From Chiloscyllium plagiosum (taxonomy: Eukaryota): a stretch of 64,000 nucleotides of DNA. The position numbers were made by a program, and so were the translations under genes. Positions 1 to 63,879 of the stretch are shown in pieces. The stretch spans positions 26,064,231 to 26,128,230 of the forward strand of contig NC_057719.1 of the NCBI RefSeq assembly GCF_004010195.1, in the 5' to 3' direction. The notes under the pieces are model-generated. The model saw only the letters and a list, made by a program, of their open reading frames with translations. It had not been told where the DNA came from and made no database searches. Each line of letters starts with the position of its first letter. Position 1 is the first letter of the stretch.

Positions 1-163
1 TTAGATCAGAGTGGTGCTGGGAAAGCACAGCAGGTCAGGCAGCATCTGAGGAGCGGGAAGGGTTCCTGTTTCCTGATGAAGGGCTTTTGCCCGAAACATT
101 GATTTTCCTGTTCCTCAGATGCTGCTTGACCTGCTGTGCTTTTCCAGCACCAATCTGATCTAA
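1..163. mobile_element. Palindromic Penelope-derived non-autonomous element (family A) with hammerhead motif
   Basis: Arms ttagatcagagtggtgctgg... / ...ccagcaccaatctgatctaa; CTGATGAAGGGCTTTTGCCCGAAAC at 73-97. Confidence 0.75.
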
Positions 164-8824: not shown

Positions 8825-9535
8825 GAGGTGGAGATGGTCAAGAGTGTCCAGTTTCTGGGAGGGATGATCACTAACAATCTGTCCTGGTCCACCACCCCAA
8901 TAACACTTCTACTTCCTCAGGAGGCTAAGGAAAGTCAGCATGTCTACAAAGGCGGTGACCAATTTTTATAGCTGCACCGTAGAAAGCATCCTATCTGGAT
9001 GCAAGCTAGCTGGATGGTTTGGTAACTGCTCTTCCCAAGACCATAAAAAACTACAGATTCATGAACACAGCCCAGTCTATCATGCAAACCAGCTTTCCAT
9101 CCACTGACTCCATTGTTACTTCCCGCTGCCTTGGTTATATTCTCTTCCACCCTCTTCTGTCAGGCAGAAGTAATAAAGGTTTGAACACATGCACGAACAG
9201 ATTCAAGGGGGACAGTGAGGTCTGCAGATGCTGGAAATCAGAGTTGAGAGTGTGTTACTGACCTGCTGTGCTTTTCCAGCAACCACAATCTCAACCACAA
9301 ACAGATTCAAGACCAGCTTCTTCCCCACTATTATCAGACGTTTGAATAGACCTCTCAAATGTTAATTATGATCTCTTTCTCTCTCTCTGCACCTTCTCTG
9401 TGGCTGTAACATTGTCTCCTGAAATCTGTTCTGCTACCCAAATGCATCTGTGATCTGCCTGTACAACATGAAAAACAGCACTTTTCAATGTATCTTGGTA
9501 CATGTGACAACAATTAATCAAACAAATAAACTCAA
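8825..9535 (+). mobile_element. Rex1/Babar LINE 3' fragment, interrupted by family A insertion 9208-9299
   Basis: EVEMVKSVQFLG..ITNNLSW motif; same family as 52738-53672. Insertion TSD aacagattcaag at 9196-9207 and 9300-9311. Confidence 0.75.
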
Positions 9536-10020
9536 ACCTTACAGAGTTGGCCAAATCTTTGCTGTATGTGTACAGCTGTACAAAAAATGTAAAGATTCCA
9601 TGAACATATATAAACCTTCAACACAATACAAAACAAAAATTAAAACTTATTAAATGTCCTTAATAATAGACTCTTGTATTTTCCTAATGGTGTCAGACTA
9701 ACTGACATATAATTCTGTGTTCTCCTACTTTTGAAGTTATATTTGTTATCCTCTAATCCATGGGGACCACTGCAGCATCTACAGAAGTCTGAAACAAAAC
9801 AAAATCAATGCATTTACTATGACTGCAGCCACCTCTATAAAACCCCAAGGGTGTAGTCTATCAGAGTTTCAGATTCAGCAGTTTTGCCAGTACTTTTTCT
9901 TTACTAAAATTAATTACTTTTTGTTTCTCACTCTTTTTAAACCTATGGTTCTACATAATTTCCACTATGTTCTTTGGATGTTCTCTTTTGAAGACAAATG
10001 CCAAACATTTATTTTCATTT

Positions 10021-10220
10021 AGATTAGAGTGGTGCTGCAAAAGCACAGCAGGTCAGGCAGCATCCGAGGAGCAGGAGAATTGATGTTTCGGGCAAAAGTT
10101 CTTCATCAGGAATAGAGGGCAGGAAGCCTCCCCTCGGATGCTGCCTGACCTGCTGTGCTTTTCCAGCACCACTCTGATCAAAACTCTGGTTTCCAGCATC
10201 TGCAGTCCTCATTTTTACCT
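10021..10220. mobile_element. Palindromic Penelope-derived family A copy
   Basis: Inverted arms; 14-bp TSD atttattttcattt at 10007-10020 and 10221-10234. Confidence 0.85.
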
Positions 10221-10256
10221 ATTTATTTTCATTTGTCATTCCCTTATTCCCCAGCA

Positions 10257-20676: not shown

Positions 20677-20822
20677 GGCACGGTGGCACAGTGGTTAGCA
20701 CTGCTGCCTCACAGCGCCAGAGACCTGGGTTCAATTCCCACCTCAGGCGACTGACTGTGTGGAGTTTGCACATTCTCCCCGTGTCTGCGTGGGTTTCCTC
20801 CGGGTGCTCCGGTTTCCTCCCA
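20677..20822 (+). mobile_element. Young HE1 V-SINE running into the assembly gap
   Basis: ggcacggtggcacagtggttagcactgctgcctcacagcgccagagacc...ccgggtgctccggtttcctccca, with CpGs retained. Confidence 0.9.
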
Positions 20823-21503
20823 NNNNNNNNNNNNNNNNNNNNNNNNNNNNNNNNNNNNNNNNNNNNNNNNNNNNNNNNNNNNNNNNNNNNNNNNNNNNNN
20901 NNNNNNNNNNNNNNNNNNNNNNNNNNNNNNNNNNNNNNNNNNNNNNNNNNNNNNNNNNNNNNNNNNNNNNNNNNNNNNNNNNNNNNNNNNNNNNNNNNNN
21001 NNNNNNNNNNNNNNNNNNNNNNNNNNNNNNNNNNNNNNNNNNNNNNNNNNNNNNNNNNNNNNNNNNNNNNNNNNNNNNNNNNNNNNNNNNNNNNNNNNNN
21101 NNNNNNNNNNNNNNNNNNNNNNNNNNNNNNNNNNNNNNNNNNNNNNNNNNNNNNNNNNNNNNNNNNNNNNNNNNNNNNNNNNNNNNNNNNNNNNNNNNNN
21201 NNNNNNNNNNNNNNNNNNNNNNNNNNNNNNNNNNNNNNNNNNNNNNNNNNNNNNNNNNNNNNNNNNNNNNNNNNNNNNNNNNNNNNNNNNNNNNNNNNNN
21301 NNNNNNNNNNNNNNNNNNNNNNNNNNNNNNNNNNNNNNNNNNNNNNNNNNNNNNNNNNNNNNNNNNNNNNNNNNNNNNNNNNNNNNNNNNNNNNNNNNNN
21401 NNNNNNNNNNNNNNNNNNNNNNNNNNNNNNNNNNNNNNNNNNNNNNNNNNNNNNNNNNNNNNNNNNNNNNNNNNNNNNNNNNNNNNNNNNNNNNNNNNNN
21501 NNN
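20823..21503. other. Assembly gap (N run)
   Basis: Continuous n characters. Confidence 1.
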
Positions 21504-23035: not shown

Positions 23036-24494
23036 ATTGCACGGTGCCTTCTTTTTCTTTATTTATAATATAGTGTTTATATGGTGCTATGTTTGCTCAG
23101 GCTTAAAATTAATGACATTTCTATTGATACAAATCAATTGACATGAATTGTTTGGATCATAAACCTATCCTAGGAATACACTGGATGTCAGGTATTTTTT
23201 CTATTTCAGGTTACTCTATTCAATAGTATATTTGTGCAAATATTTATTTGATTTTCTGTTGCTCAGTAACTGTGTCCTATTTCTGCATATTTTCTGAAAG
23301 TGATCTGTTGTCTTACTGATGAAATAATCCTTGTTAAAAGTTAGTCACAGTTTATAACTGTGAAGTTTGCTTATTCTATAGCATGGACACTAACTCTTGA
23401 TATCTACTGTTCAGTCTTTGTACTAGCTTGTCACATATATCTTTCAGGTTTTTCTATCTTATAAACTGAATGAACTCTGCAGATCTTTTATCATAAGGTT
23501 GATTTTCCCCTGTTAGGATTTATCTGCATTTCTGTCTGATTATTACTTCCAACACCATCTGAATGGCTCCCTCCAAGTAAAATCTACTTTGGACTGTAAC
23601 AAATCTGACAAAGATAAATTAAGAATTCCAACAACCTTTTTTGTCTCTTATGAATTCTAGTTTCATAACCACAGTTTTCCAATAATGTTTGATCTCTTTT
23701 ATTTGATCTCACTCTTTCAAGAAGTTTATTTGTTCTCAGATTAAAGTAATTGTCAAAAGTCTATAGAGCTTGATTAAAGTATCTGTGGGCCTATTACATT
23801 GTGATGAGGTATAGCATCATCAGCTTTAATCCCAATGAAATATAAATGCATTTACTTGTCCAGCTTCTGATTAAGCATCTATTTTGGAAGCAATTCTATA
23901 TCTTAACTGCTTTATCCAAAACGTTCAATTCTGTGTTCTATTTGGCCCATCTCTGAAAGTTGTTCTTCATAACAACATTATTGATTTTGCAATTTCTTCC
24001 TTATGTGACCATTTATTTTTCTAAATCTAAAGCTTTTTAATTCTGTTGCTCTACTCTCATTCCTTTAAAGGCTTTTAATCCTGCAATCTTTTATTGCTGC
24101 TTTATTCTCATTGCATGAATTATTTTTTACATGTTTGTATCCCAATTTTGTTTTATTTTCCTTGGCTTAAAGGCATTAAACAGTATGGTTTAGCAATCCT
24201 ACTTCCTTGTGCCGCTTGCTGGAGGAGTCACCTGCACTGTTGTGGTCAAAATTGACGTTTCCTACTTCTATGGCTAAAATGGCAGTATCCCGCTTTCCAT
24301 GGTTAAAATAGAAGATTCCAGCCTTTTGGTGGGCAAAATGGATGATTGTCCACTTTCGCAATCTAATAAACAATTCCCATCTTTTTCCCTAACCAACTAA
24401 ATCCTGTTGCCTGCAGCCTTAAAAATGAATCCCATTTGCTGAACAGCTTTCTCTCGATGATTCACTTGTAATACTCCCCGATACATGATAGGAG

Positions 24495-25913
24495 CGATAC
24501 CAAAGACTAAAACACTTAGTAGAAGACTCATGCCATTCCATCCACTCCACCCAAGAATTCCTGAAGACCATCAAAGACACCAAGATTGAAGAGGATGAAA
24601 TAATGGTCTTTTTTAACGTAACAGCCCTGTTCACATCCATCAACATCAACCTGGCCAAGGCAACACTGACTACATTATTAGAAGACCCAAAGGAACATAC
24701 ACCAAACACCACAAACTTCATCAGCAAGGATAGTATCGTCAAGCTACTGGACCTATGCCTAACCACCCATTTCACCTTCAACAAAAAAACCTACAGACAA
24801 ACCAATGGAACACCCATGGGATCGCCGATATCAGGGTTCTTAGCAGAGGCTGTAATGCAGAGGCTTGAGTAAACAGCTCTGCCAACCATCCGACCGAAAC
24901 TCTGGGTCTGCTATGTGGATGATACCTTTGTCATCACTGAACAAAACAATTCAGAGGAAACCTTCAAAGGCGTTTACTGGCATAATATTCACTAAAGAAG
25001 AGGAAAACAACAACAAACTGCCATTCCTGGATGTCACAATAGAATGAACAGCCAATGGGGAACTACAAACTAGCGCCTCCAGGAAACCAACACATACGGA
25101 CCAAATATTGAACGACAGAAGCAATCATCCCAACACCCACAAACAAAGCTGCATCAGAACATTATTTCAACAAGTCAGCACCCACTGCAGCTCAGAGGAA
25201 CTACACAGAGCAGAGGAAAATCACCTATACAGTGTATTCAAAAAGAACGAGTACCCAATGAACACAGTCCATCGATTTATGAGCAACAAACCCAAACAAG
25301 CAGACAAAACATGTCCAGAAACCCAAGTTACTCTCCCCTTACATCAAAGACATTTCAGAAGTGACTGCTAGATTACATCATGGTAGCCCACAAACCCACC
25401 AACACACTAAACCAGCAGCTAATGAACTTGAAACACAGACAACTAGCAAAACTAATGTCATCTACAAAATACCATGCAAGAACTGTAACTACATTGGATA
25501 ACCAGGCAGAAAACTAGCCACCAAGATACATGAACATCAATTAGCCACAAACCGACATGACCCACGCTCACTAGTATCCTTACATAAGGATGAGAAAGGA
25601 CACCACTTCGACTGGGACAACACATCTATCCTAGGACAAGCCAAACAGAGACACACACATGAGACTTCCTATAATCATGGCAATCCAACCAGAACTCTAT
25701 CAACAAACACATTGATTTAGACTCCATCTACCACTCCCTGAGAAAAAGAACAGGAAATGACATCACCAACCCAAGGAAACTCAAACATATAAATAGAAAG
25801 CGGGCTATACCACCAGTGCTTCATTTGGAGCCTCACTGAAGATATTACCTAGTATGGTGATGAAATGTCTGAAAACGAACCTTCCAACTCAGCAAGCAAA
25901 CCTACATCCAGAA
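24495..25913 (+). mobile_element. Penelope-like element (Poseidon-type), 5'-truncated: RT, GIY-YIG endonuclease and pLTR
   Basis: FNVTALFT, GTPMGSPIS, YVDD (24912-24923), LPFLDV, NVIYKIPC..C..YIG. Hammerhead motif at 25836-25869. TSD ccttaaaa at 24417-24424 and 25914-25921. Confidence 0.92.
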
Positions 25914-34566: not shown

Positions 34567-35422
34567 CTGTTTATTCAGACATCCAATGCAGTCTATAAAA
34601 AATTGCTTCAATATAAATATTGATAAAACTGAAACTCTTGAAGTAGCGCAATCCATTGAAGTCCGTCTTAATGTATTTTAAACAGCCATAGGATTATACA
34701 ACAATGTAGCACCAAAATTACCATTCGCCCAAGCCAGTCAGCAGGGCTGTTTTTCTCCATGAACCACTAACGTTAAAGTTCAATGTTAATCTTCTTTGTA
34801 TATTGTGTTTGTAGAAACAACAATCTAGATTTCTGCTTGGTTTTTCTCCTGACCTTTTCCATACATTCTTAATGATTTTATATCTGGTTGGCAACATTTC
34901 TTTGAGTTTTTACTCCATTTTAAATCAGCCATCTTAATTTTATTTTCTTTCTCCTTTCTTAATCCTAAAGTATGTTAGTTCCCAGTTTCGATTCCTATTT
35001 TGATAAGCTATCTCTGTCCTCCAATATCTTTCCCAAACTCCACTGCAATTTGCCACAGCTACTATCCACTTCACTACATCTCTGGTAATTTTGTCTCTTG
35101 CAAATTTCAATGTTGTTCCTCATGTTCCTCTGACCAAACTATTTGTGCAATTGAATTAGATTTCTACTTTCCTATGTTGAAGATGAAAATTCTGCTGCAA
35201 TGCCAAATGTTAGTAGTAACTGTTCCACTGCAAATTCAGCTTGAGAATGACATTAAAGTTCAGGTCATGGTGGAAGTGTGGAGGAATTTGGAATGGCAAT
35301 ATGTTCATTCATGACTTCAGCTTAAAATTGCCATATTGCATCTGATGGATTACTTGCAGTACCTTGCAATTCTTTTTTTTGATAATTAAGATGAGAATTC
35401 AGTTGGCAGCAGAACTACATTT

Positions 35423-36420
35423 TAATTGAATTGAATTGAATTTATTGTTATGTGTACTGAGGCACAGTGAAAATCTTTGTCTTGCGAGCAATGCAGGCAG
35501 ATCACATTGTTAAGTAGCATAGATAAGTAAATAATAGGTTAACAGCGGCAAAAACAAAAACACAGGTACAGGCGAATCTTAACAGTTTGTGAGTCCATTC
35601 AGTATTCTAACAACAGGACGGTAGAAATTGTTATGAAACCGACTGGTGTGTGTGTGTTCAGGCTTCTGTACCTTCTCCCTGATGATAGACGTTGTAGAAA
35701 AACATTGTCAGGGTGGGATGGATCTTTGAGAATCCTGGCGGCCTTTTGTTGACAGTGGGCCTGGTTGATGGATTCTATAGACGGGAGGTTGGCCTTTGTG
35801 ATTGTCCGGGCTGAGTTCACCACTCTCTGTAACTGTCTCCGATTTTGAATGGTACAGTTGCCATACCAGGAAGTGATACATCCAGACAGAACGCTCTCGA
35901 TGGCGCACCTATAAAAGTTGGCAAAGGTATTCACCGTCATGCCAAATTTCCTCAGATGCCTGAGGAAGAAGAGATGTTGTTGGGCCTTTGTAACCAGTGC
36001 GTCCACATGAAGAGTGCAAGAAAGCTTGTTGTAGATGACCACTCCTGGGAGCTTGACACTCTCCACTCGTTCCACCTCTGTGCTGTTAATGTGTAGGGGG
36101 GCATGAGTAACATCCCGCCGAAACTCAATAATGCGTTCCTTGGTTTCGCTGGCATTGAGAGCTAGGTTGTTCTCAGTGCACCATGTTTCCAGGTGCTCCA
36201 CCTCCCATCTGTAGTCTGTTTCGTCGCCATCTGAGATTCGACCGACTATGGTGGTGTCATCAGCGAACTTATAAATGACATTAGTCTGGTATTTGGTGAT
36301 GCAGTCATGGGCATACAATAAGTACAGTAGGGGGCTGAGTACGCACCCCTGCTGAGCTCCAGTGCTGAGTGTTAGTGAGAATGAAATATTGTCCCCAATC
36401 TTCACTGATTGTGGCTTGTG
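35423..36420 (-). mobile_element. Rex1/Babar LINE, 5'-truncated, RT C-terminal half still open
   Basis: 268-aa ORF with GAQQGCVLSP, KFADDTT, KAQQHLFFLRHLRKFG; (CAATT)n tail. Confidence 0.9.
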
Positions 36421-47713: not shown

Positions 47714-48500
47714 TAGACTTTTCAGAGAAAGGGTATCAATGCTGTATCAGTCACTTCCATATCTTTGTCACCCATTTATAATGGGCTTCAATTTCTTACC
47801 ATAGCTCCCACAGACACTGATTCTTCCTGGGATATGGATTCCACAGGAAGAAGAGCCAAGACAGGAGATTGGTTGGGGCAGGAGTGGAGTCTATTATTCA
47901 GCCTCAATTCAGCAGCAAGGGCACCATACTTTGGGTCCTGGATCCAGCAGTTGGCCTGAGTTAGCAGTTCAGTGGGTATGAGATCTGGCAATAAACCTGA
48001 GTCAGTGATAAAGGAGGGGATGGAGATGTCCTTCATTTGGACATGGGGGTAAAGTTGGTCAAATCCTGGTAAGGGCAAGAATGGAGAGGAGGGGGAGATG
48101 GGTGAGTGAGAGCTAAGTGGGAATGTGAAGGGCAGCATGGTGAATGCGATTTGGGAAATATTAATTTTTGGTTTTCATGTTTAATGATTGCTTCTGATGC
48201 CTGACAATTTCTGATGTCTTTTGTTGGCAACTGATTTTTAAAAAATGGCAACTGAGTGTTTTGATGACTGAGAAATAACTCATTCCAAACTATACTTCCA
48301 AATGATGACTGATCCATTAGGGCACATTTGAAGACAAATGATGTCAATATTTTCAGACAAGAAATTTTCTGCTATTTTAAGGAGGCATTAAGCTAATTCT
48401 TTTTGTCTTAAAATTGCTTAATTCCTTAGTTAAAACGCTAAAGTATCATCACTCTTAAATATTCATTGTTTTTGTTTTACTGTCACATGTGTCACATCCA

Positions 48501-48623
48501 GGATCTGAGGAGCAGGAGAAATGTTGATTCTCCAACTCTTCGGATGCTGCCTGCATTGCTGTGCTTTTCCAGCACCACACTCTTGACTCTGAGTTCCAGC
48601 ATCTGCAGTCCTCACTTTCTCCT
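48501..48623. mobile_element. Penelope-derived family A copy with short inverted arm
   Basis: TSD atgtgtcacatcca at 48487-48500 and 48624-48637. Confidence 0.8.
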
Positions 48624-49299
48624 ATGTGTCACATCCAAACTATCAAACTCTCTTTACGAAGTGTTTTCCTGTCAAGAGTGGGCTTTTGCTGGCAGTTCTG
48701 TTTGTCAATATTGTATAAGTATCAAATAATTTATATGACAAGGCCAGATTATCATTAAACTAAATCCTTGCTTGTGGTGTACATTCATTAGGAATTAGAA
48801 ACGAACTCACCAGTATAAATGTCCGCATAAATGCAGTAATTATTTGTTTCACAGATGCAATTCCGAACTAGAACTGATTGTTTTCAATATCAAGTTTCAA
48901 ATCATCTACATTAGTCATTTGCATCAGTATTTCCTAAGCACCCAAATCAAATTGCAGCATTTTTTAAAAAAAGGCAATCACACACAGTGGAATAATTTAA
49001 TAATTTAATATTGCATCGGTTCAGAGGTTGGATCAGGGTGCAGGAAATGCTGTCAAAACAAATTTAACTCAGTTCATCCTAATCCAAACTGAAAGCATTC
49101 TCACAACCTGCCTGTATTAGGAGTTCAAGAATAGGAGCTGCAGAATTGAACAATTCTCTTAAATGTTTAATATTAATGTTGAAATTTCCACTGATGTTCC
49201 AACACCCAAAGTTTGTGTTTGAAAGAAGTTGATTTTTGTTCCTGACATAGATGCCGCACATGTTCATTTTGGTTTCCAATTGACAGGAGGACCTGTGTT

Positions 49300-50930
49300 A
49301 TTTTCATGGACCGATTACTGATTTGGATATCCAGGAGGATGGACAGTACTTACAGAAATCCTGCAGTCCCTTTGAGGAAAGGGAAAGCTGAAGAACCCAT
49401 TAACAATCAACTTTTATAATTAAACTGAGCATTGCCAAAGTCCGTTATATCTTGTTTCCTTTTCTTAAGATATTATTCATTGTATCATTTTGATGGTACA
49501 ATGTCATACCTCCATTGTATACATTCAACATTCAATGGGGAGCGGTGTTGGCAAACAACACTGGCAATGTTATGCAGCTGCATCTCTTATTGTAGGCTTC
49601 ATTCTTGGTATGCTGATTATATGTAACTTGCTGGTATCACTGTTGACATGGCATTGCCAGTTGGTGATACCAGTGATGTTGTCTTGTGATGTTGCTGATG
49701 TTGTTGAATTTCACTGCTCTCAGCTCAATTATAGGTCAGCTATGCACTCTGTTCTTTCGCATTTGCCTCCCAGTTTCAGCCTCAATGTGGGATGACCTTG
49801 GAGTTCTCTCACCAACAACTTGTGCTGGGTTCCAGCCAGATTTTGACAACTGGATCCTGTCTATGTAGTTTGTCCATGCAACAGCACAGGCATGCTTGGT
49901 GAAGTGCTGACCTGTACATCAGTGAGCTATTAGAGTCTAGATTAGAGTGGTGCTGGAAAAGCACACCAGGTCAGGCAGCATCCGAGGAGCAAGAAAATTG
50001 ACATTTCGGGCAAAAGCCCTTGGGTCCTGATGAAGGGCTTTTGCCTGAAACATCAATTTTACTGCTCCTCGGATGCTGTCTGACCTGCTGTGCTTTTCCA
50101 GCACCACTCTAATCTAGACTTTGATTTCCAGTATCTGCAGTCCACACTACTGCCCATCAGTGAGCTGTTGTCTTAGTTACTCCTGGAGGAAGTATCTGGT
50201 TTGGTAGAACTGTCTTAGACTTTCTCTCATTCATTTACGAAAAGACACGTGGATCCAATTGACAATCAGGTGAGATTTGAGTTTTCTTTCGTCTCTCAGT
50301 ACTTTGTGAGAGCAGTCTTGACCACCTGGACCTGACTTTCGATAAACCCATGTCTCCTTGTGTAATGACATTGAATTGATAATATTCAGAAAATTCTTTA
50401 AATTCTCTGGAGCAAATTGAGTTGTATACTAAGCTTCCAGGAATCCCATGCACAGCAAACAGAACCTACGGCTGAGATGATTGTTGTTGCTCTCAAACCT
50501 GTTACATTTCAGATAAAAAGGAAATGTGTAGTTGCCTGCAACTTTGTGACCTAAATCTTGATCGCATGTGAGAAAAATCTGCTTTTACAATATGCTATGG
50601 TCCAGGCAGGACATCAGGAGCTATCATCTCCTCTCTCTGCTGTGTATTTATGTACTTTTGGCATATGCTGCATGTAGCTGCTATTCTTTTGATGCCTATC
50701 CAGTACATAACCATTCCAGCTCTGAGCTTATACTTACCCCCTCCCATTTGGCCTTCATGTATCTCTGGAAAAGCTCCGTATATTGTATATGATTATTCCA
50801 GATCCAGTATCAGAGGACCATTTTCTGGTGAGATGCCATCACTGGTAGACCCCTATACTGTCATATTGTTGGGCTGTGTTTCCTGTACTTCAGGGCATCT
50901 CTGGACAACATGCTAAGAAAGAATTTATAA
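49300..50930 (-). mobile_element. Gypsy (Mag-like) integrase remnant with PPT and start of 3' LTR
   Basis: IHEGQMG..K.RA...YW.GI..CSICQ; FAVHGIP..SREFKEF; WNPAQVV..PRS...TGRQMRKNRVH; purine tract ~49450-49467 followed by tataac. Confidence 0.75.
49929..50154. mobile_element. Palindromic family A copy inserted in the Gypsy remnant
   Basis: Arms ~90 bp; TSD catcagtgagct at 49917-49928 and 50155-50166. Confidence 0.85.
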
Positions 50931-54224: not shown

Positions 54225-54710
54225 CATAGATTCCCTATAGTGCAGATGGAAGCCATTTGGCCCATTAACCCTCTAAAGAGAAACCCACCCAGCCCCAGCC
54301 CATCCTTATAACCCTGCATTTCCCATGGCTAATCCACCTAGCTTGCATATCCCTGGACACGATGGGCAATTTAGCATGGCCAATCCACCTAGCCTGCACA
54401 TCTTTGGACTGTGGGAGGAAACTGGAGCACCCAGAGGAAACCCACGCAGACACGGGGAGAACATGCAAACTTATTAATGTTGATCTTGTCTAGTGCACAT
54501 CCTATTTTTCACCCTACGATCCATATGTCCTTGCTTTCTATGATCTATCTGTACTTGCAAACAAAGCTTTTCACTATACTTAGGTACATTTGACAATAAA
54601 TCAAACCAATTCAATTCAAGACCACACAGACAGTCTCCTAAGGCTGGAATTGAACCCTGGTCCTAGGCACTGTGAGGCAGCAGTGCTAACCACTGCATCA
54701 CCATTCCACC
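54225..54710 (-). mobile_element. HE1-type V-SINE interrupted by a Rex1 3' tail (~54473-54620, +)
   Basis: V domain at 54400-54470 resumes at cacacagacagt (~54623). The insert matches the Rex 3' UTR and ends caattcaattcaa. Confidence 0.8.
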
Positions 54711-54771
54711 CTTCCCAAAGTACAAATCTCAGCAAACTCCTGACAAGGTCCTTAGCCATTTGCTCACTGTG

Positions 54772-55129
54772 CAATAAAACAAAGAATTGTGGATGCTGGA
54801 GATCTGAAATAAAAACAGAAATTGCTGGTGGAGCTCAGTGAACCAGGCAGCATCTGTGGGAAGAAACCAATGGCATGAAATGTTAACTCTGCTTTCTTCC
54901 CACAGATGCTGCCTGACCTGAGTTCCATAAGTAAATTCTGTTTTTGTTCCAGATCACCAGCATCAACAATTCTTCATTTTATTACACAGTGAGCAGCTGG
55001 CTAAGGATAAACTGCCTTATCTTGTGATTGCTGAGATTAGAATTTGGGAAGGGTGCCATGGTGGTTCAATAGTTGGCACTGCTGCCTCATAGCACCCAGA
55101 ACCTGAGTTCAATCCCAGCCTTGGGTGGT
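54772..55129. mobile_element. Older PLE-derived palindromic element plus inverted copy of its left flank
   Basis: Element arms ~54772-54868 / ~54890-54985; 54986-55125 is the reverse complement of ~54637-54771; direct repeat tttgctcactgtg at 54759-54771 and 55130-55142. Confidence 0.75.
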
Positions 55130-55189
55130 TTTGCTCACTGTGTAGGCTTGCTGCTGTGACAAGGCATATCAAGTTTACCTTGCATGATA

Positions 55190-56045
55190 AAGAATATCCT
55201 GATTAAAACATCATTTGTTGTATGTCACAAAAACTCATGAAGTAACCCTCGATGTCAGATTACCCTGGAAGTGGAAAGTGTCTCAAAATCTGAGTAACAG
55301 GGGAAGTGAGTTGTCTCACATTGCTGCAATGCAGTAAGTCCATGTGGTTTTTTTTATCAGCTGCTTCTGTCAAGCCAAAAAGAAGTTTTACCTCCACAAA
55401 GAAGAGTAATGTGTTATATGAGTTTCAGTGCCAGTGCAATGCCTGGTATATAGGCCATATATCCTAATGTCTGGTGGACTGTATCAAACAACATGTCCTG
55501 TTGACAATCTGCAGTGGCAGTAAACTACTTTTGCTCAACCAACCTGTGCTCACAAAGTTCAGAAAGGTCTATCCACCATTAGATGTGATTTTGCGGTTTG
55601 AAACAAATTATTAAATAACCTGGACTGTGGTAGAATTTGCATCGGAAACCAGTTTAAGATCATCAGCTGAACTCACAGTATGATGTATTTGCACATGTCT
55701 GAGGCTACATACATCAATACTTGGGACCCTGTTATGCATAGGCAAAGGAACATACATTGCACTTTAGTATATACATTGCTGCATCTTTTTTTCAAAAACA
55801 TGGGGTCTTGGAGACATTCATACACAGGTGCATCTACATTGCAATGCCCTGACCGACAGGAATCTCCTTGTTTGGTCTGAGAATGAAGATTGATAATTCA
55901 CTGTTCTTGCTGCATCATCATACTAATTAAGGCCCAATCAATCAGCTCTCTCTCTCATCATCCAGTATGAAATGGTGTTTCCTTCTTCCCATCTGTTTCT
56001 TGCATTCTGGTTCCAATGAGCACAAGATAAAAAGCTTCAACTTCT
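55190..56045 (+). mobile_element. Penelope-like element 3' part (GIY-YIG endonuclease remnant)
   Basis: KSNVLYEFQCQCNAWYIG....L...IKQHV at ~55402-55497; possible decayed hammerhead ccaatgagcacaagataaaaagcttc at ~56013-56038. Confidence 0.7.
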
Positions 56046-56419: not shown

Positions 56420-57247
56420 GTCTTCCACCAAAAGTTTATTTACAACTCCCATTACTACCACTTTTTGTATTTTAACAACTGATGTTCCTTGACTATGCAC
56501 TTGCTTAAAAGCTGTGGGTTTATGAAGGCCATCTTAGGAGCAGGAGTAGGCCATTCAACCCCTTGTGCCTCTTCCACCATTTAATAATGATCTGAGGCCT
56601 AACTCCATTGAATTGAAACCTCAGACCTGAACTATTGGAGTTGATTTTTTTTTGCACAGAGAATGGTTACCTGGTGAATACAGCTTGCTGCTTACCTCTC
56701 TGAGCTTCCATTTAGCAACATGTCATTTCATGTTCGATGGACAATGTCCACTAGCAGCCTTCATTCACAAGTATTATCATTGACAAACCAGTAAGGTGTC
56801 AGTGAGCTGGTACATGCAGTGGTGAAATGCTGAAGTGTATTATTCTGTACTAGTTCGATATTAGCCCTGAGGCTGCTGGTTTGTCAATGATGATGATTGT
56901 GAATGAAGGCTGCTAGTGGACATTGTCCATCGAACATGAAATGACATGTTGGTAAATGGAAGCTCAGAGAGGTAAGCAGCAAGCTGCATTCACCAGGTAA
57001 CCATTCTCTGTGCAAAAACAAATCAACTCCAATAGTTCAGGTCTGAGGTTTCAATTCAATGGAGTTAGGCCTCAGATCATTATTAAATGGTGGAAGAGGC
57101 ACAAGGGGTTGAATTGCCTACTCCTGCTCCTAAGGTGGCCTTCATAAACCCACAGCTTTTAAGCAAGTGCATAGTCAAGGAGCATCAGTTGTTAAAATAC
57201 AAAAAGTGGTTGTAATGGGAGTTGTAAATAAACTTTGGGTGGAAGAC
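56420..57247. repeat. Long inverted repeat: 372-bp arms, 84-bp spacer
   Basis: 56420-56791 is the reverse complement of 56876-57247, with about 11 substitutions and no indels by manual comparison. Confidence 0.95.
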
Positions 57248-58900: not shown

Positions 58901-59071
58901 TCTGCATTGCACCATCATCCCTTTTGAGATTTAATCAGCGTGCTCTCTAAATAAAAACACAGACCCTTCCCTTTTGTTATTGTCATGCTCTATTTTCCTC
59001 TGGCTTCATACTGTTTACTTATTCATTCATGGGATTCATGTGCCAGAATTTATTGCCTATTATGAATAGCA

Positions 59072-59304
59072 CTGAAAATGTGTTGCTAGAAAAGCGCAGC
59101 AGGTCAGGCAGCATCCAAGGAGCAGGAGAATCGACGTTTCGGGCATGAGCCCTTCTTTAGGAATGCCCTTCTTCTCGATTCCTGAAGAAGGGCTCATGCC
59201 CGAAACGTCGATTCTCCTGTTCCTTGGATGCTGCCTGACCTGCTGCGCTTTTCCAGCAACACATTTTCAGCTCTGATCTCCAGCATCTGCAGTCCTCACT
59301 TTCT
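59072..59304. mobile_element. Young palindromic family A copy with two opposed hammerhead motifs
   Basis: CTGAAGAAGGGCTCATGCCCGAAACGTC at 59182-59209 (+) and a G5-mutated copy at 59133-59160 (-). TSD cctat(t/c)atgaatagca at 59056-59071 and 59305-59320. Confidence 0.88.
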
Positions 59305-61497
59305 CCTATCATGAATAGCAAACCTGTTTAGAAACAGTAACATCTCACACATAAGTTGTTTCTGATGAAACATCATGTATCAGAAATGTTAACTCGCTGT
59401 CCCGTTTTCCACAGATGCTGCCCAACCTGCTGCGTGTTTCCAGCATTTTTGGTTTTCACTTTAAAAAAATGATGCTGTCTCTGTTTGAAGTGCTTCCTGT
59501 ATTGGACTCTCTGTCACAGAGCTTTCACAAAACAATATAATGTGAGAAGGAATGCAATGGCAAAATTAAATGGTTTCTGATACAGAAGTCCAAAACAAAT
59601 ATATTTAAGTACTGCCAACTTTGCATCAATTAAATAAAGTTACAACTTCACTTGTTAAACTATGACGTATTTTAAACTGACTTTTCCTGGCGCAAAGATT
59701 AAATCTCATAATTAGTATGGAAAACCTTGTTTCCCTTTTTCTGCACCTCATAAACTTCTTTGTGTGGGCTTATACTTCAAAAATTAAAGTAATTAACTGC
59801 TCCCAAATTGCATTAGTGATGCATTTGATTTTTATGATATGCTAATTTCTCTATGCAAGATGATATCTTACAGATAGATCAGTTTAAAAATGATTAAACC
59901 ATTGAACTAATTAAAATCAATCATAACTTTTTGATCCACTGTCAGGCGGAGATAGTATGCCGTTGTGAGATAAGACACTTTGGAACAGGGCAGAGAAAAA
60001 CATCATTATGATTTAGTCTTTTCAAGGCAGTTGAAGATCTGCAAAGTGTACATATTGGAAATGAAAATAAGAAGTGCATGCAGGATATAGCAAAGAGGAA
60101 AGTTGAAAGAGTTCTCATGTTAATAAGTGGACTGGCCAAAATCATGTCGAAATAATTTTGGGATGACAATAAACAATAAGCAAACAAAAAAACAAAAAAT
60201 GCTGGAGAAACTGAGCAGGTCTGGCAGCACCTGTGGAGAGTGAGAGAAATAGTTAATGGATTGGATCTTTACGTTTTTTTGGTAAAACCATTTTACTCTG
60301 AGTTTCCTGTCAGATGATTGGTCACGGCCCGTATTGGGATGCTTCTCAGGTAACTGTCTGCTGTTCAGCTCGCTAATTTGTCAAGCTGCATCTTTGGTGC
60401 CCAGCTCAGGTTATTGTTTGGCAGATGTGACAGAGCTGCTCACTGCTGCTGGGATGTTGCCATGCTCATGCTGCTGGCTCCAGCTCCTGATGTGCACTTC
60501 CAATGCTCCAAAGCAGGAAGGCTGCTGTTTCACCATTATAACCAAGCAATTGACCCAGAAAGGGAACACAGCACCCCTGTTTGTCGGATAGAGACCTGAA
60601 AACTTTGGATGACAGAAGGACAGGGCTGTTTCCTCCAGACTGTCAAAAGTAGATTATACCGCAATCACAGCCAGAGTGGAGGAAGGTCGTCCCCCAGGTT
60701 GGTACTCTGCCCAGTGTGAAAATTAATGCACAACAGTACTGTCAAAAGGTGAATGACCTGCTGTGCTCTGCAAGATAAAGTGAAATTATTCTGTCTCTGC
60801 TCCCTCGCACATGGCCACCAGATGTTGGAAATCTGAAACAAAAGCAAAAATTGCTGGAGAAACTCAGCAGGTCTGCCACACCTCTCTTACCAAGGCTCCT
60901 GGACTACACCCCACACTACTGCATGCATCATGTCCATTCAATGCCTCTCCCCAACTCCGCTTATCTTTCCAACAGACTAAACTTTTCCCAACTTGGTCAG
61001 CTCACCACCTCTCCCCACAATTCTATTATGTTCAAAGCTTCACGTTGTAGGAAAAACTGTGGTATAAGAGCATGGGGATGGCAGATATTCCTCACCCAGC
61101 AAGAGAAAATGGTGCTGATGTTGGCTGGAGAAGATGGTGACCGCTTGTGTGGGCTTCTGAGACCTCTCTATCCAGTTAAATGAGAGAACTTCATTGTGCT
61201 GTGCAACACTGCTCACCAATTAATACAAGCAAGAACGCATTCTTATCACAAACAACTGACTTACATAACTGCTTCTCCCTATTCTCTTATGCAGGCATTT
61301 GTGAAACTCAATGGCCTTGGACAAAAAGGAGGTCAATGCCAATCTCCATCCCCAGCCCTGAGGAGGAAGCCACTCAATGATGCACCAGCAAGGCTTTTCC
61401 CTGCAGCCTCTACTATCTCAGTAACTTTTTGCCCAGGTTGTGGTGGGGATTTCTTACCAGATTAAAGTGGGATCACAACCTGGAAAGCACATCATTG

Positions 61498-62453: not shown

Positions 62454-63879
62454 GGGCCCACTTGGGAAAGTGCAAATAGTCTCCAGTCCCTGGGGTCAAC
62501 AGCAAAAAGTAATAACACACTCAAAGTATGCAAGGTCTCCAATTTACCAAATTAACAACTTAACAGAAAACACTGACCAGGTTCCTGTACTTACGAAGAA
62601 CTATTATCTACTTAGAAATAGATAAGTTCTGGCCACAGATGAAAAACTATGTATCATCAAGATATCACTCTACTACTTGAAACTCTAACCCTACTTGGAA
62701 ACCTCTACATACATACAGACAGATAAATAAAGAAATATTGGTGTCATGAAAGGAGGGAAAAATACTTGGGAAACACAGTTCAAATGAACCAATGCAAAGG
62801 ATTCATTGAGATGTTCCTTTTGTTTCTGAAACTGCTCTGTTCTTCCATCTCTTGTTCCAGGTTCTTTTGTTTCTTTGCAGGAGGCACAAGGTGATTGGCA
62901 TACCAATTACAAAGCCTTTTCATTAATGGTTAAAAGAAACTGCTTGCAGCAACTAATGAAAGAAAATAATTTTCTTACTATAAGCTTCATGAGTGTTTAC
63001 AACAGAGAGAGAAGAGACACAAAAGACACAAAACCAAGACATCTCACTCTCTATTGCAAGCCCCCAATCTGTTTGCCTGCCCAGGAGCTAATCAGAGAGC
63101 TCTCATCATCAGACTCTGATGACTTCCAGTATCCACACTGATCACAGTTTCACAAACCAATCAGTAATCTGTTACCAGCTGAAATGCACACACCCTGTTG
63201 CCATACCATCTTATCTCTCTTCTCCCCCAACCTCCCCTACACTGTAAACATAATTCACAATGTCTTTCAGTAATGTGTTCTCAAAAATTCAGCATTTCCA
63301 TCATTTGTACTTGGTTTTAAAACTGTCTTTTTTCCCCATTTCAGTTTACAATCAAATATATTCAAAAAAAAACATATGATCTTTACAACTCAACTATTTG
63401 ATCCTGAAAATCCTCACCTTATCCTGATTCAAAGAACAGGATACTACTGTCAAGCCAAAAAGACATTTTGCCCATAAGGTATGTAGGCCATAAATCCCAA
63501 AGACTGGTGATGGTTCTTTGGCTGATCACAATAGGCAGACTACTGAGCATATTCAACCAACCTCTCCTGGCAAAACACAGAATGTACATTAAGTTAGATG
63601 TGATTCCATAGTGCTGCTTAACAATTATAAATATACTGGTAACTACAGTACCAACCAGGTTAAGATTATCAGCAAGAATCACAGTATAAGAGCAAGACAC
63701 TGCAGATGCTGGAAATCTGAAATAAAAACAGAAAGCATTGGAGAAATTCGACGAGCCTGGCAGCACCTGTGCAGAGAAAAACCAAGTTCATGTTTTGAGA
63801 CTGATATCACTCTTCTTTAGAAAAGGCCAATAAACTAGTGAGTTTTTTGATGCTGTTGACAGAGCTTAGCAGCAATGAA

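Follow-up and report, generated by a model that had tools for sequence, protein, structure and literature searches.

The fold-back near 54.8 kb raises the question of how a piece of neighbouring DNA came to lie, inverted, inside the target-site duplication (TSD) of a small insertion that resembles the 3' end of a Penelope-like element (PLE). The stretch of DNA analysed, here called the window, is 64,000 nucleotides long. According to the original prediction, the palindrome at this locus does not stop at the ends of the element but continues into the left flank.

The fold-back and the mirrored flank

A repeat search of the window revealed three pairs of inverted segments at this locus: 54844-54869/54890-54915 (96% complementary), 54749-54838/54918-55007 (84%) and 54637-54719/55043-55125 (81%). 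The fold-back as a whole spans 54637-55125, and the two arms could be aligned continuously from the tip near 54870 out to 54637 and 55125. When the 601 nt of 54600-55200 were folded, they formed a single hairpin with a z-score of -18.3, and none of 20 shuffled sequences folded as well. The inverted arms, the hairpin fold and the continuous alignment thus establish that the palindrome runs on into the left flank. We also aligned the part of the flank that belongs to neither the SINE nor the element (54713-54758) to the reverse complement of 54999-55052. This alignment of the host part of the right arm to the left flank, on which the prediction had staked itself, gave a score of 44, against a shuffle maximum of 26 (0/2000 shuffles). 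Over its outer ~137 nt, the right arm mirrors the left flank.

Reading from left to right, the left half consists of a SINE head (minus strand), 46 nt of an old ORF, target copy 1 and arm 1 of the element, which is antisense and carries the tail. The right half consists of arm 2 (sense, also with the tail), the inverted target site, the inverted ORF piece and SINE head, target copy 3 and the remaining ORF (Table 1). Within the right arm, the 3' tail of the element is followed by the inverted target site and then by 122 nt more of the left flank, including the SINE head. Both arms reach the identical 3' end and both have the tail, unlike the one-sided 30-40-bp tail of PLEs. At the tip, the inner end of arm 1 falls between 54869 and 54876, and the tip alignments leave 3-20 nt of sense element sequence in arm 2 that are unmatched in arm 1. 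They permit a near-symmetrical tip eroded by two 3-nt gaps; in the alternative alignment arm 1 ends at 54869, and ~20 nt are unique to arm 2.

The element and the copied flank had been described as bracketed by a 13-bp TSD. An exact 13-bp direct repeat is indeed present (54759-54771/55130-55142), but the full duplication is 15 bp long (54759-54773/55130-55144) and contains one mismatch (14/15 identical). The site is present three times, and at the mismatch, where the left copy differs, the inverted copy (54984-54998) sides with the right copy.

Table 1. Features of the fold-back locus and related insertions in the window
Feature	Position	Strand	Remarks
~150-bp unrelated insertion	54470..54621	-	splits left SINE just beyond the end point of the inverted copy
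SINE-like head	54637..54712	-	original, template of the inverted copy; 83-88% matches to three other window copies
Old RT/GIY-YIG ORF, left piece	54713..54773	+	ends in left target copy; in frame with 55132 onward
Target-site copy 1	54759..54773	+	15 bp; first 13 identical to copy 3
Arm 1: PLE-like 3' end, antisense, with tail	54774..54876	-	adjoins original flank; putatively the primed cDNA
Arm 2: same element end, sense, with tail	54877..54983	+	14/93 aligned positions differ from arm 1
Target-site copy 2, inverted	54984..54998	-	from alignment
Inverted copy of old-ORF piece	54999..55049	-	7-nt insertion relative to left copy; score 44, shuffle maximum 26
Inverted copy of SINE head	55050..55129	+	3' side missing; abuts target copy 3; 60/76 identity to left head
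Target-site copy 3	55130..55144	+	first five bases = SINE word shortly downstream of the stop of the inverted copy
Old retroelement ORF, right piece	55132..55766	+	post-RT region, then GIY-YIG-like domain; stops and frameshifts
Other two-armed PLE-like micro-insertions	9196-9311, 10007-10234, 48488-48636, 49917-50169, 59056-59320, 1-163		one-sided tails, different centres

Between the arms, 40 of 228 aligned positions (~17%) are mismatched, and there are a few indels. Mismatches occur at 26/135 positions in the host part and at 14/93 in the element part (Fisher P=0.48). By segment along the arms, the counts were 16/76, 10/59, 6/47 and 8/46 (chi-square P=0.70, a test of low power). The even divergence of host and element parts fits one old event, although it has little power against two events close in time.

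The site before the insertion

The head in the mirrored flank is that of a SINE-like family, of which the window has three further copies. This much of the predicted SINE head stands; HE1 SINE is the name that the prediction attached to it, and the similarity shown is that among the four window copies. The body of the left SINE continues leftward past a ~150-bp insertion, whereas the right copy stops without a 3' body, and the left copy is therefore the original. The head and the body of the split left SINE each match other SINE copies, in which the two are contiguous. The insertion that splits it (54470-54621) has no evident target duplication, and weak paralogues of it occur at 9447-9527 and 35421-35488. 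Elsewhere in the window, an assembly gap (a run of N) lies within a SINE copy at ~20820-21500.

The left flank had been taken for unique host DNA, and this was not borne out, since it is part of an older, decayed RT/GIY-YIG retroelement ORF. When the decayed flank pieces themselves were compared with Pfam, none of the five matched, and a word-based search with one flank piece retrieved no relatives. One piece retrieved nine weak relatives (E 6e-5 to 8e-4), two of which were unrelated and were dropped. A GIY-YIG match under the Pfam cut-off in one weak relative led to 48 longer proteins, many of them with an RT domain, and a profile was built from all 48. We observed tblastn E values down to 7e-17 for 55132-55770 against RT/GIY-YIG proteins, and the profile scored 48.9 and 33.0 bits on the right ORF piece. 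The old ORF, which we presume to be of the Neptune clade, was not traceable leftward of the SINE. Another remnant of this old GIY-YIG ORF family lies at 63400-63815, directly followed by an antisense copy of the same old end subfamily that is present at 54.8 kb. These are two insertions of one end subfamily into one kind of target, possibly by chance.

We further evaluated whether the ORF reads across the insertion. The left flank, one target copy and the right flank together gave an unbroken in-frame profile match (positions 515-563, about 21.8-21.9 bits), while the right part without the left flank scored 10.8 bits against the same profile. With random pieces of the window as left flank the score was 13.2+/-1.8 bits, reaching as high in 4/3000, and a shuffled left flank reached the in-frame score in 2/1000. 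The SINE copy now abutting the site, when used as left flank, gave 10.5 bits. The in-frame continuity across one target copy argues for an ancestral site that had one target and lacked both the arms and the inverted flank. From ORF continuity we infer that the 356-bp block, together with one target copy, is an addition to the older ORF. This approach reaches the pre-insertion site by a paralogous route and thereby answers one of the refuting conditions set with the prediction, namely presence of the right-hand SINE head before the insertion; it is compatible with the block having arrived in one step or in two. One relative lies ~4% from this sequence (rough arithmetic, from word shares of 0.22 vs ~0.7). 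As the arms here have diverged by ~8% each, close relatives probably carry the filled site.

The end family and its other copies in the window

The insert likely belongs to the PLEs, as suggested by its architecture and by a hammerhead-like motif in its relatives; the tie between this end family and PLEs is one that we presume. The insert itself contains no ORF. Downstream of the RT/GIY-YIG remnants at 24500-25500 and 55130-55770 the 3' sequence is a different one, and the end family is tied to no ORF in the window. The region 24300-25900 contains a decayed ORF of PLE-type RT plus GIY-YIG-like domain, with a different 3' end and a CTGA..GAAA motif at 25836. Seven related window copies have a CTGANGA...GAAAC pattern with a 4-bp helix. 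The fold z-scores of these copies ranged from 0.06 to -2.0, so that stability alone is no evidence. The 54.8-kb copy begins inside the hammerhead-like motif and retains the GAAA side only. Rfam gave no match at the gathering score. A hairpin pattern scan for further family copies found none in genome contigs and none in metagenome contigs, and further pattern scans found none in metagenome contigs or viral contigs. The 67 pattern matches in prokaryote genomes were taken as chance; they extend <=44 nt against the element.

As described in the accessible text of the PLE papers, inverted pLTR copies of these elements lie within the TSD, with an optional tail, and self-priming has been proposed from palindromes at the junctions (PMC3846280, PMC8557442). 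The protein of the anole PLE cuts both strands in vitro and extends them, with starts at two sites that bound the tail, according to the available part of that study (PMC11167929). Among the accounts offered in the same portions of these papers are self-priming on RNA, endonuclease resolution and two RT start sites (PMC3846280, PMC8557442, PMC11167929).

A seeded BLAST search identified 24 pieces of the end family in the window. Six of these loci (near 9.2, 10.0, 48.5, 49.9, 54.8 and 59.1 kb) are two-armed insertions with both ends and a 12-16-bp duplication, so that an inverted 5'-truncated copy beside the main copy within a short TSD is seen here and in five other two-ended copies. A further fold-back, at 1-163, is not counted among the six, its left end being cut by the window edge. 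When we examined whether the flank was mirrored inside the insert, this was true of one of the six, the 54.8-kb copy, with a score of 150; the others scored 12-23, with null maxima of 24-29. A right-flank score of 38 for the 59.1-kb copy was set aside because a neighbouring family copy (59383) lies in that flank. At 59165-59177, the loop of a fold-back repeats ~10 nt of the adjacent antisense arm and resembles a short templated insertion.

The other five two-armed insertions have the tail on a single arm and no flank copy. In three of them the tail-less arm covers no element sequence beyond that of the tailed arm and may have been copied from it. In the remaining two (9.2 and 10.0 kb), the tail-less arm has upstream element sequence (~19 and ~51 nt) that is absent from the tailed arm; barring later deletion, these arms are therefore not plain copies. 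They fit a pair of cDNAs, primed on the two cut strands and begun at two sites, which is our reading of the in vitro result with the anole PLE protein (PMC11167929). Each arm holds sequence missing from its partner in two of the five, an arrangement that would seem to suit two RNA-templated cDNAs better. The general rule that had been proposed, with inverted arms made as cDNA copies, was not borne out, given the extra element sequence in two of the five other tail-less arms. It is doubtful, in our judgement, that the inverted arm of PLEs is often made from DNA at the target by snap-back of the cDNA, with the copying as a rule ending at, or being cut back to, the boundary of the tail and otherwise reading through into host DNA. 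Read-through is rare in the window, with one case among the six insertions, and the view of PLEs as generators of host palindromes draws on that one case.

Origin of the mirrored flank

Since the SINE/ORF junction and the target site are specific to this locus, the outer arm was templated by DNA at the locus and not by element RNA. Capture of the flank from RNA of this end family was thus rejected, and for the outer ~137 nt, which copy the locus-specific junction, the prediction that the inverted flank does not come from element RNA was correct. The prediction had gone on to derive the inverted arm from copying of the cDNA at the target. What stands of this is the DNA templating of the outer arm at the locus; the timing at integration and the general rule go beyond it.

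We consider it probable that a PLE 3' end was inserted here and that the integration intermediate was remodelled by fold-back DNA synthesis. A staggered cut at the 15-bp site of the old ORF would leave 15-nt 3' overhangs, and the left top-strand end would prime ~100 nt of cDNA from the 3' tail of the element. The end of this cDNA would fold back near the short palindromes of the hammerhead region, and either the PLE RT or a host repair polymerase would copy the cDNA, together with the target overhang and ~125-140 nt of flank that had been resected or displaced. Joining of the displaced strand to the intact right end would follow, probably by way of ~5 nt of microhomology at the overhang tip, and the duplication would stay whole. 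The same product would result if the arms were joined already before the last fold-back, or if synthesis towards the element began from a right end that had invaded the left flank.

The inverted copy returns exactly at the first base of the intact right target copy, the position expected of a free end. In all three paralogous SINE copies, moreover, the five bases with which copy 3 opens recur a short way downstream (this five-base word is found in 3% of random 25-mers). The exact return and the five-base match favour remodelling at the time of integration. Microhomology at the right junction is possible from the sequence, and would require a 12-nt deletion in the copy and a later insertion into the left SINE. 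The extra sequence at the tip of arm 2 speaks against a pure snap-back, because a plain copy of arm 1 cannot exceed arm 1; under a snap-back, later small deletions at the tip must therefore be assumed.

No such deletion is needed by a serious rival, which we regard as possible though tentative, namely an ordinary two-armed PLE insertion with the tail on the left arm only, followed soon after by a replication template switch that was seeded by the near-perfect palindrome, copied the tail, target and flank in inverted orientation and returned at the target copy. The element would then have seeded the duplication without its integration making it, and a longer tail-less arm is indeed seen in two of the five ordinary copies. 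A fork stalled at the base of the hairpin may be expected to halt near the target copy, and short-range switches creating inverted repeats are known from ape genomes, as reported in the accessible text of PMC7954356. A PLE-free inverted duplication also lies 1.3 kb away, so inverted duplications arise here without PLE integration. This duplication (56420-57247) is younger, with 372-bp arms that differ by 11 mismatches, an 84-nt spacer without a match elsewhere in the window, and no PLE sequence; its left arm is probably the copy, since the right arm seems to run on without a break into the repeat remnant beyond it. What argues against the template switch is that the old arm end has left no remnant and that the target copy is intact at the return point. 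The inner arms, moreover, are not visibly older than the outer ones (8/46 vs 6/47, a comparison of low power).

In a further scheme, which we think improbable, target-primed reverse transcription from the tail would have extended the left end on both sister chromatids, and the two extended ends would have fused head to head; a later break of the fold-back, ~140 bp inside one sister, would then have been joined to the right end. This would account for the shared start position of the tail in both arms and allow arm 2 to be the longer. L1 is known to yield replication/fusion fold-backs that contain two cDNAs, but the products in the available text are large rearrangements (PMC11702581), and the scheme requires a germ-line fusion, a break very near the junction and capture of the intact right end. 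That the symmetry is coincidental or artificial is scarcely credible. SINE copies are frequent in the window, yet two independent SINE insertions in opposite orientation were rejected because the non-SINE part and the SINE/ORF junction are mirrored as well, and the right SINE has no 3' body. An assembly fold-back would yield near-identical arms, and the ~17% divergence with indels rules it out; the old ORF is, furthermore, continuous once the block is removed. The reading of the structure as a MITE/TIR transposon was also rejected: 54705-54771 and 54986-55060 match each other and otherwise have two 22-24-nt matches in the window, and the outer arm is contiguous flank. The probabilities that we attach to these explanations, including the remodelled integration intermediate, are judgements and were not computed. 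The finding is one old case, and it is a footprint, not a mechanism.

We compared the locus with known systems as these are set out in the accessible parts of the respective papers. As in PLE insertions, 3'-end arms lie head to head, a 12-16-bp duplication surrounds the whole unit, and hammerhead-like motifs occur, here in related copies (PMC3846280, PMC8557442, PMC11167929). Unlike the PLE insertions with a one-sided 30-40-bp tail in those texts, both arms are tailed here, and unlike those described there, the inverted arm runs into mirrored target and flank. The tail is optional in PLEs according to the same texts, and a two-sided tail marks a variant that is compatible with membership.

In the available descriptions of L1 insertions, inverted duplications of genomic DNA with a preserved TSD are explained by self-annealing of resected ends (10.1101/2024.12.14.628481; PMC11702581). 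Our locus resembles these in that a break made by a retrotransposon would have been remodelled by self-annealing and synthesis, with the TSD kept and short microhomology. The two inverted duplications reported there, however, are at the reciprocal (unprimed) end and fold in host DNA, whereas here the fold is in the element and the primed flank is copied. The one primary-end case of L1 in these sources is an inversion, while ours is an inverted duplication, and the L1 cases are somatic or experimental, while the PLE case is old. As for L1 and R2, the inverted adjacent flank is absent from the pre-insertion site, here deduced from ORF continuity, and the TSD is kept. Snap-back 5' junctions of R2 in PRINT are a named class, in which cDNA anneals onto cDNA or nearby target DNA (PMC11371274, in its accessible text). 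They are alike in that the 3' end of the cDNA primes synthesis on its own cDNA or nearby target before joining; what differs from R2 as described there is that synthesis here would have run through the whole cDNA and the priming site into the flank inside the TSD. At yeast double-strand breaks, fold-back insertions of 10 to >150 bp with 0-5 bp of microhomology are on record in the part of PMC11724301 available, and there too an inverted copy of one break end is joined to the other end. The yeast hairpins form in chromosomal DNA without a retroelement, whereas here the hairpin is in the element.

We found no PLE insertion with host read-through in searches of an open-access library; the accessible portions of PMC9977147 and PMC4209133 hold nothing on it. 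Fold-back remodelling of the ends of retrotransposon insertions is already known, and what is new is its probable occurrence on the primed side of an old PLE-like element.

Because the inverted arm carries site-specific flank, DNA-templated fold-back synthesis must have taken place at a PLE insertion. A mirrored flank within the TSD is a simple signature that can be counted genome-wide. If read-through copies were common and always returned at the TSD, they would argue for a broken-end intermediate of PLEs like that of L1. Should snap-back occur often, such copies would settle the origin of the inverted pLTR and of the one-sided tail, and in shark genomes PLEs would steadily give rise to host palindromes and inverted SINE pairs, in numbers that can be counted.
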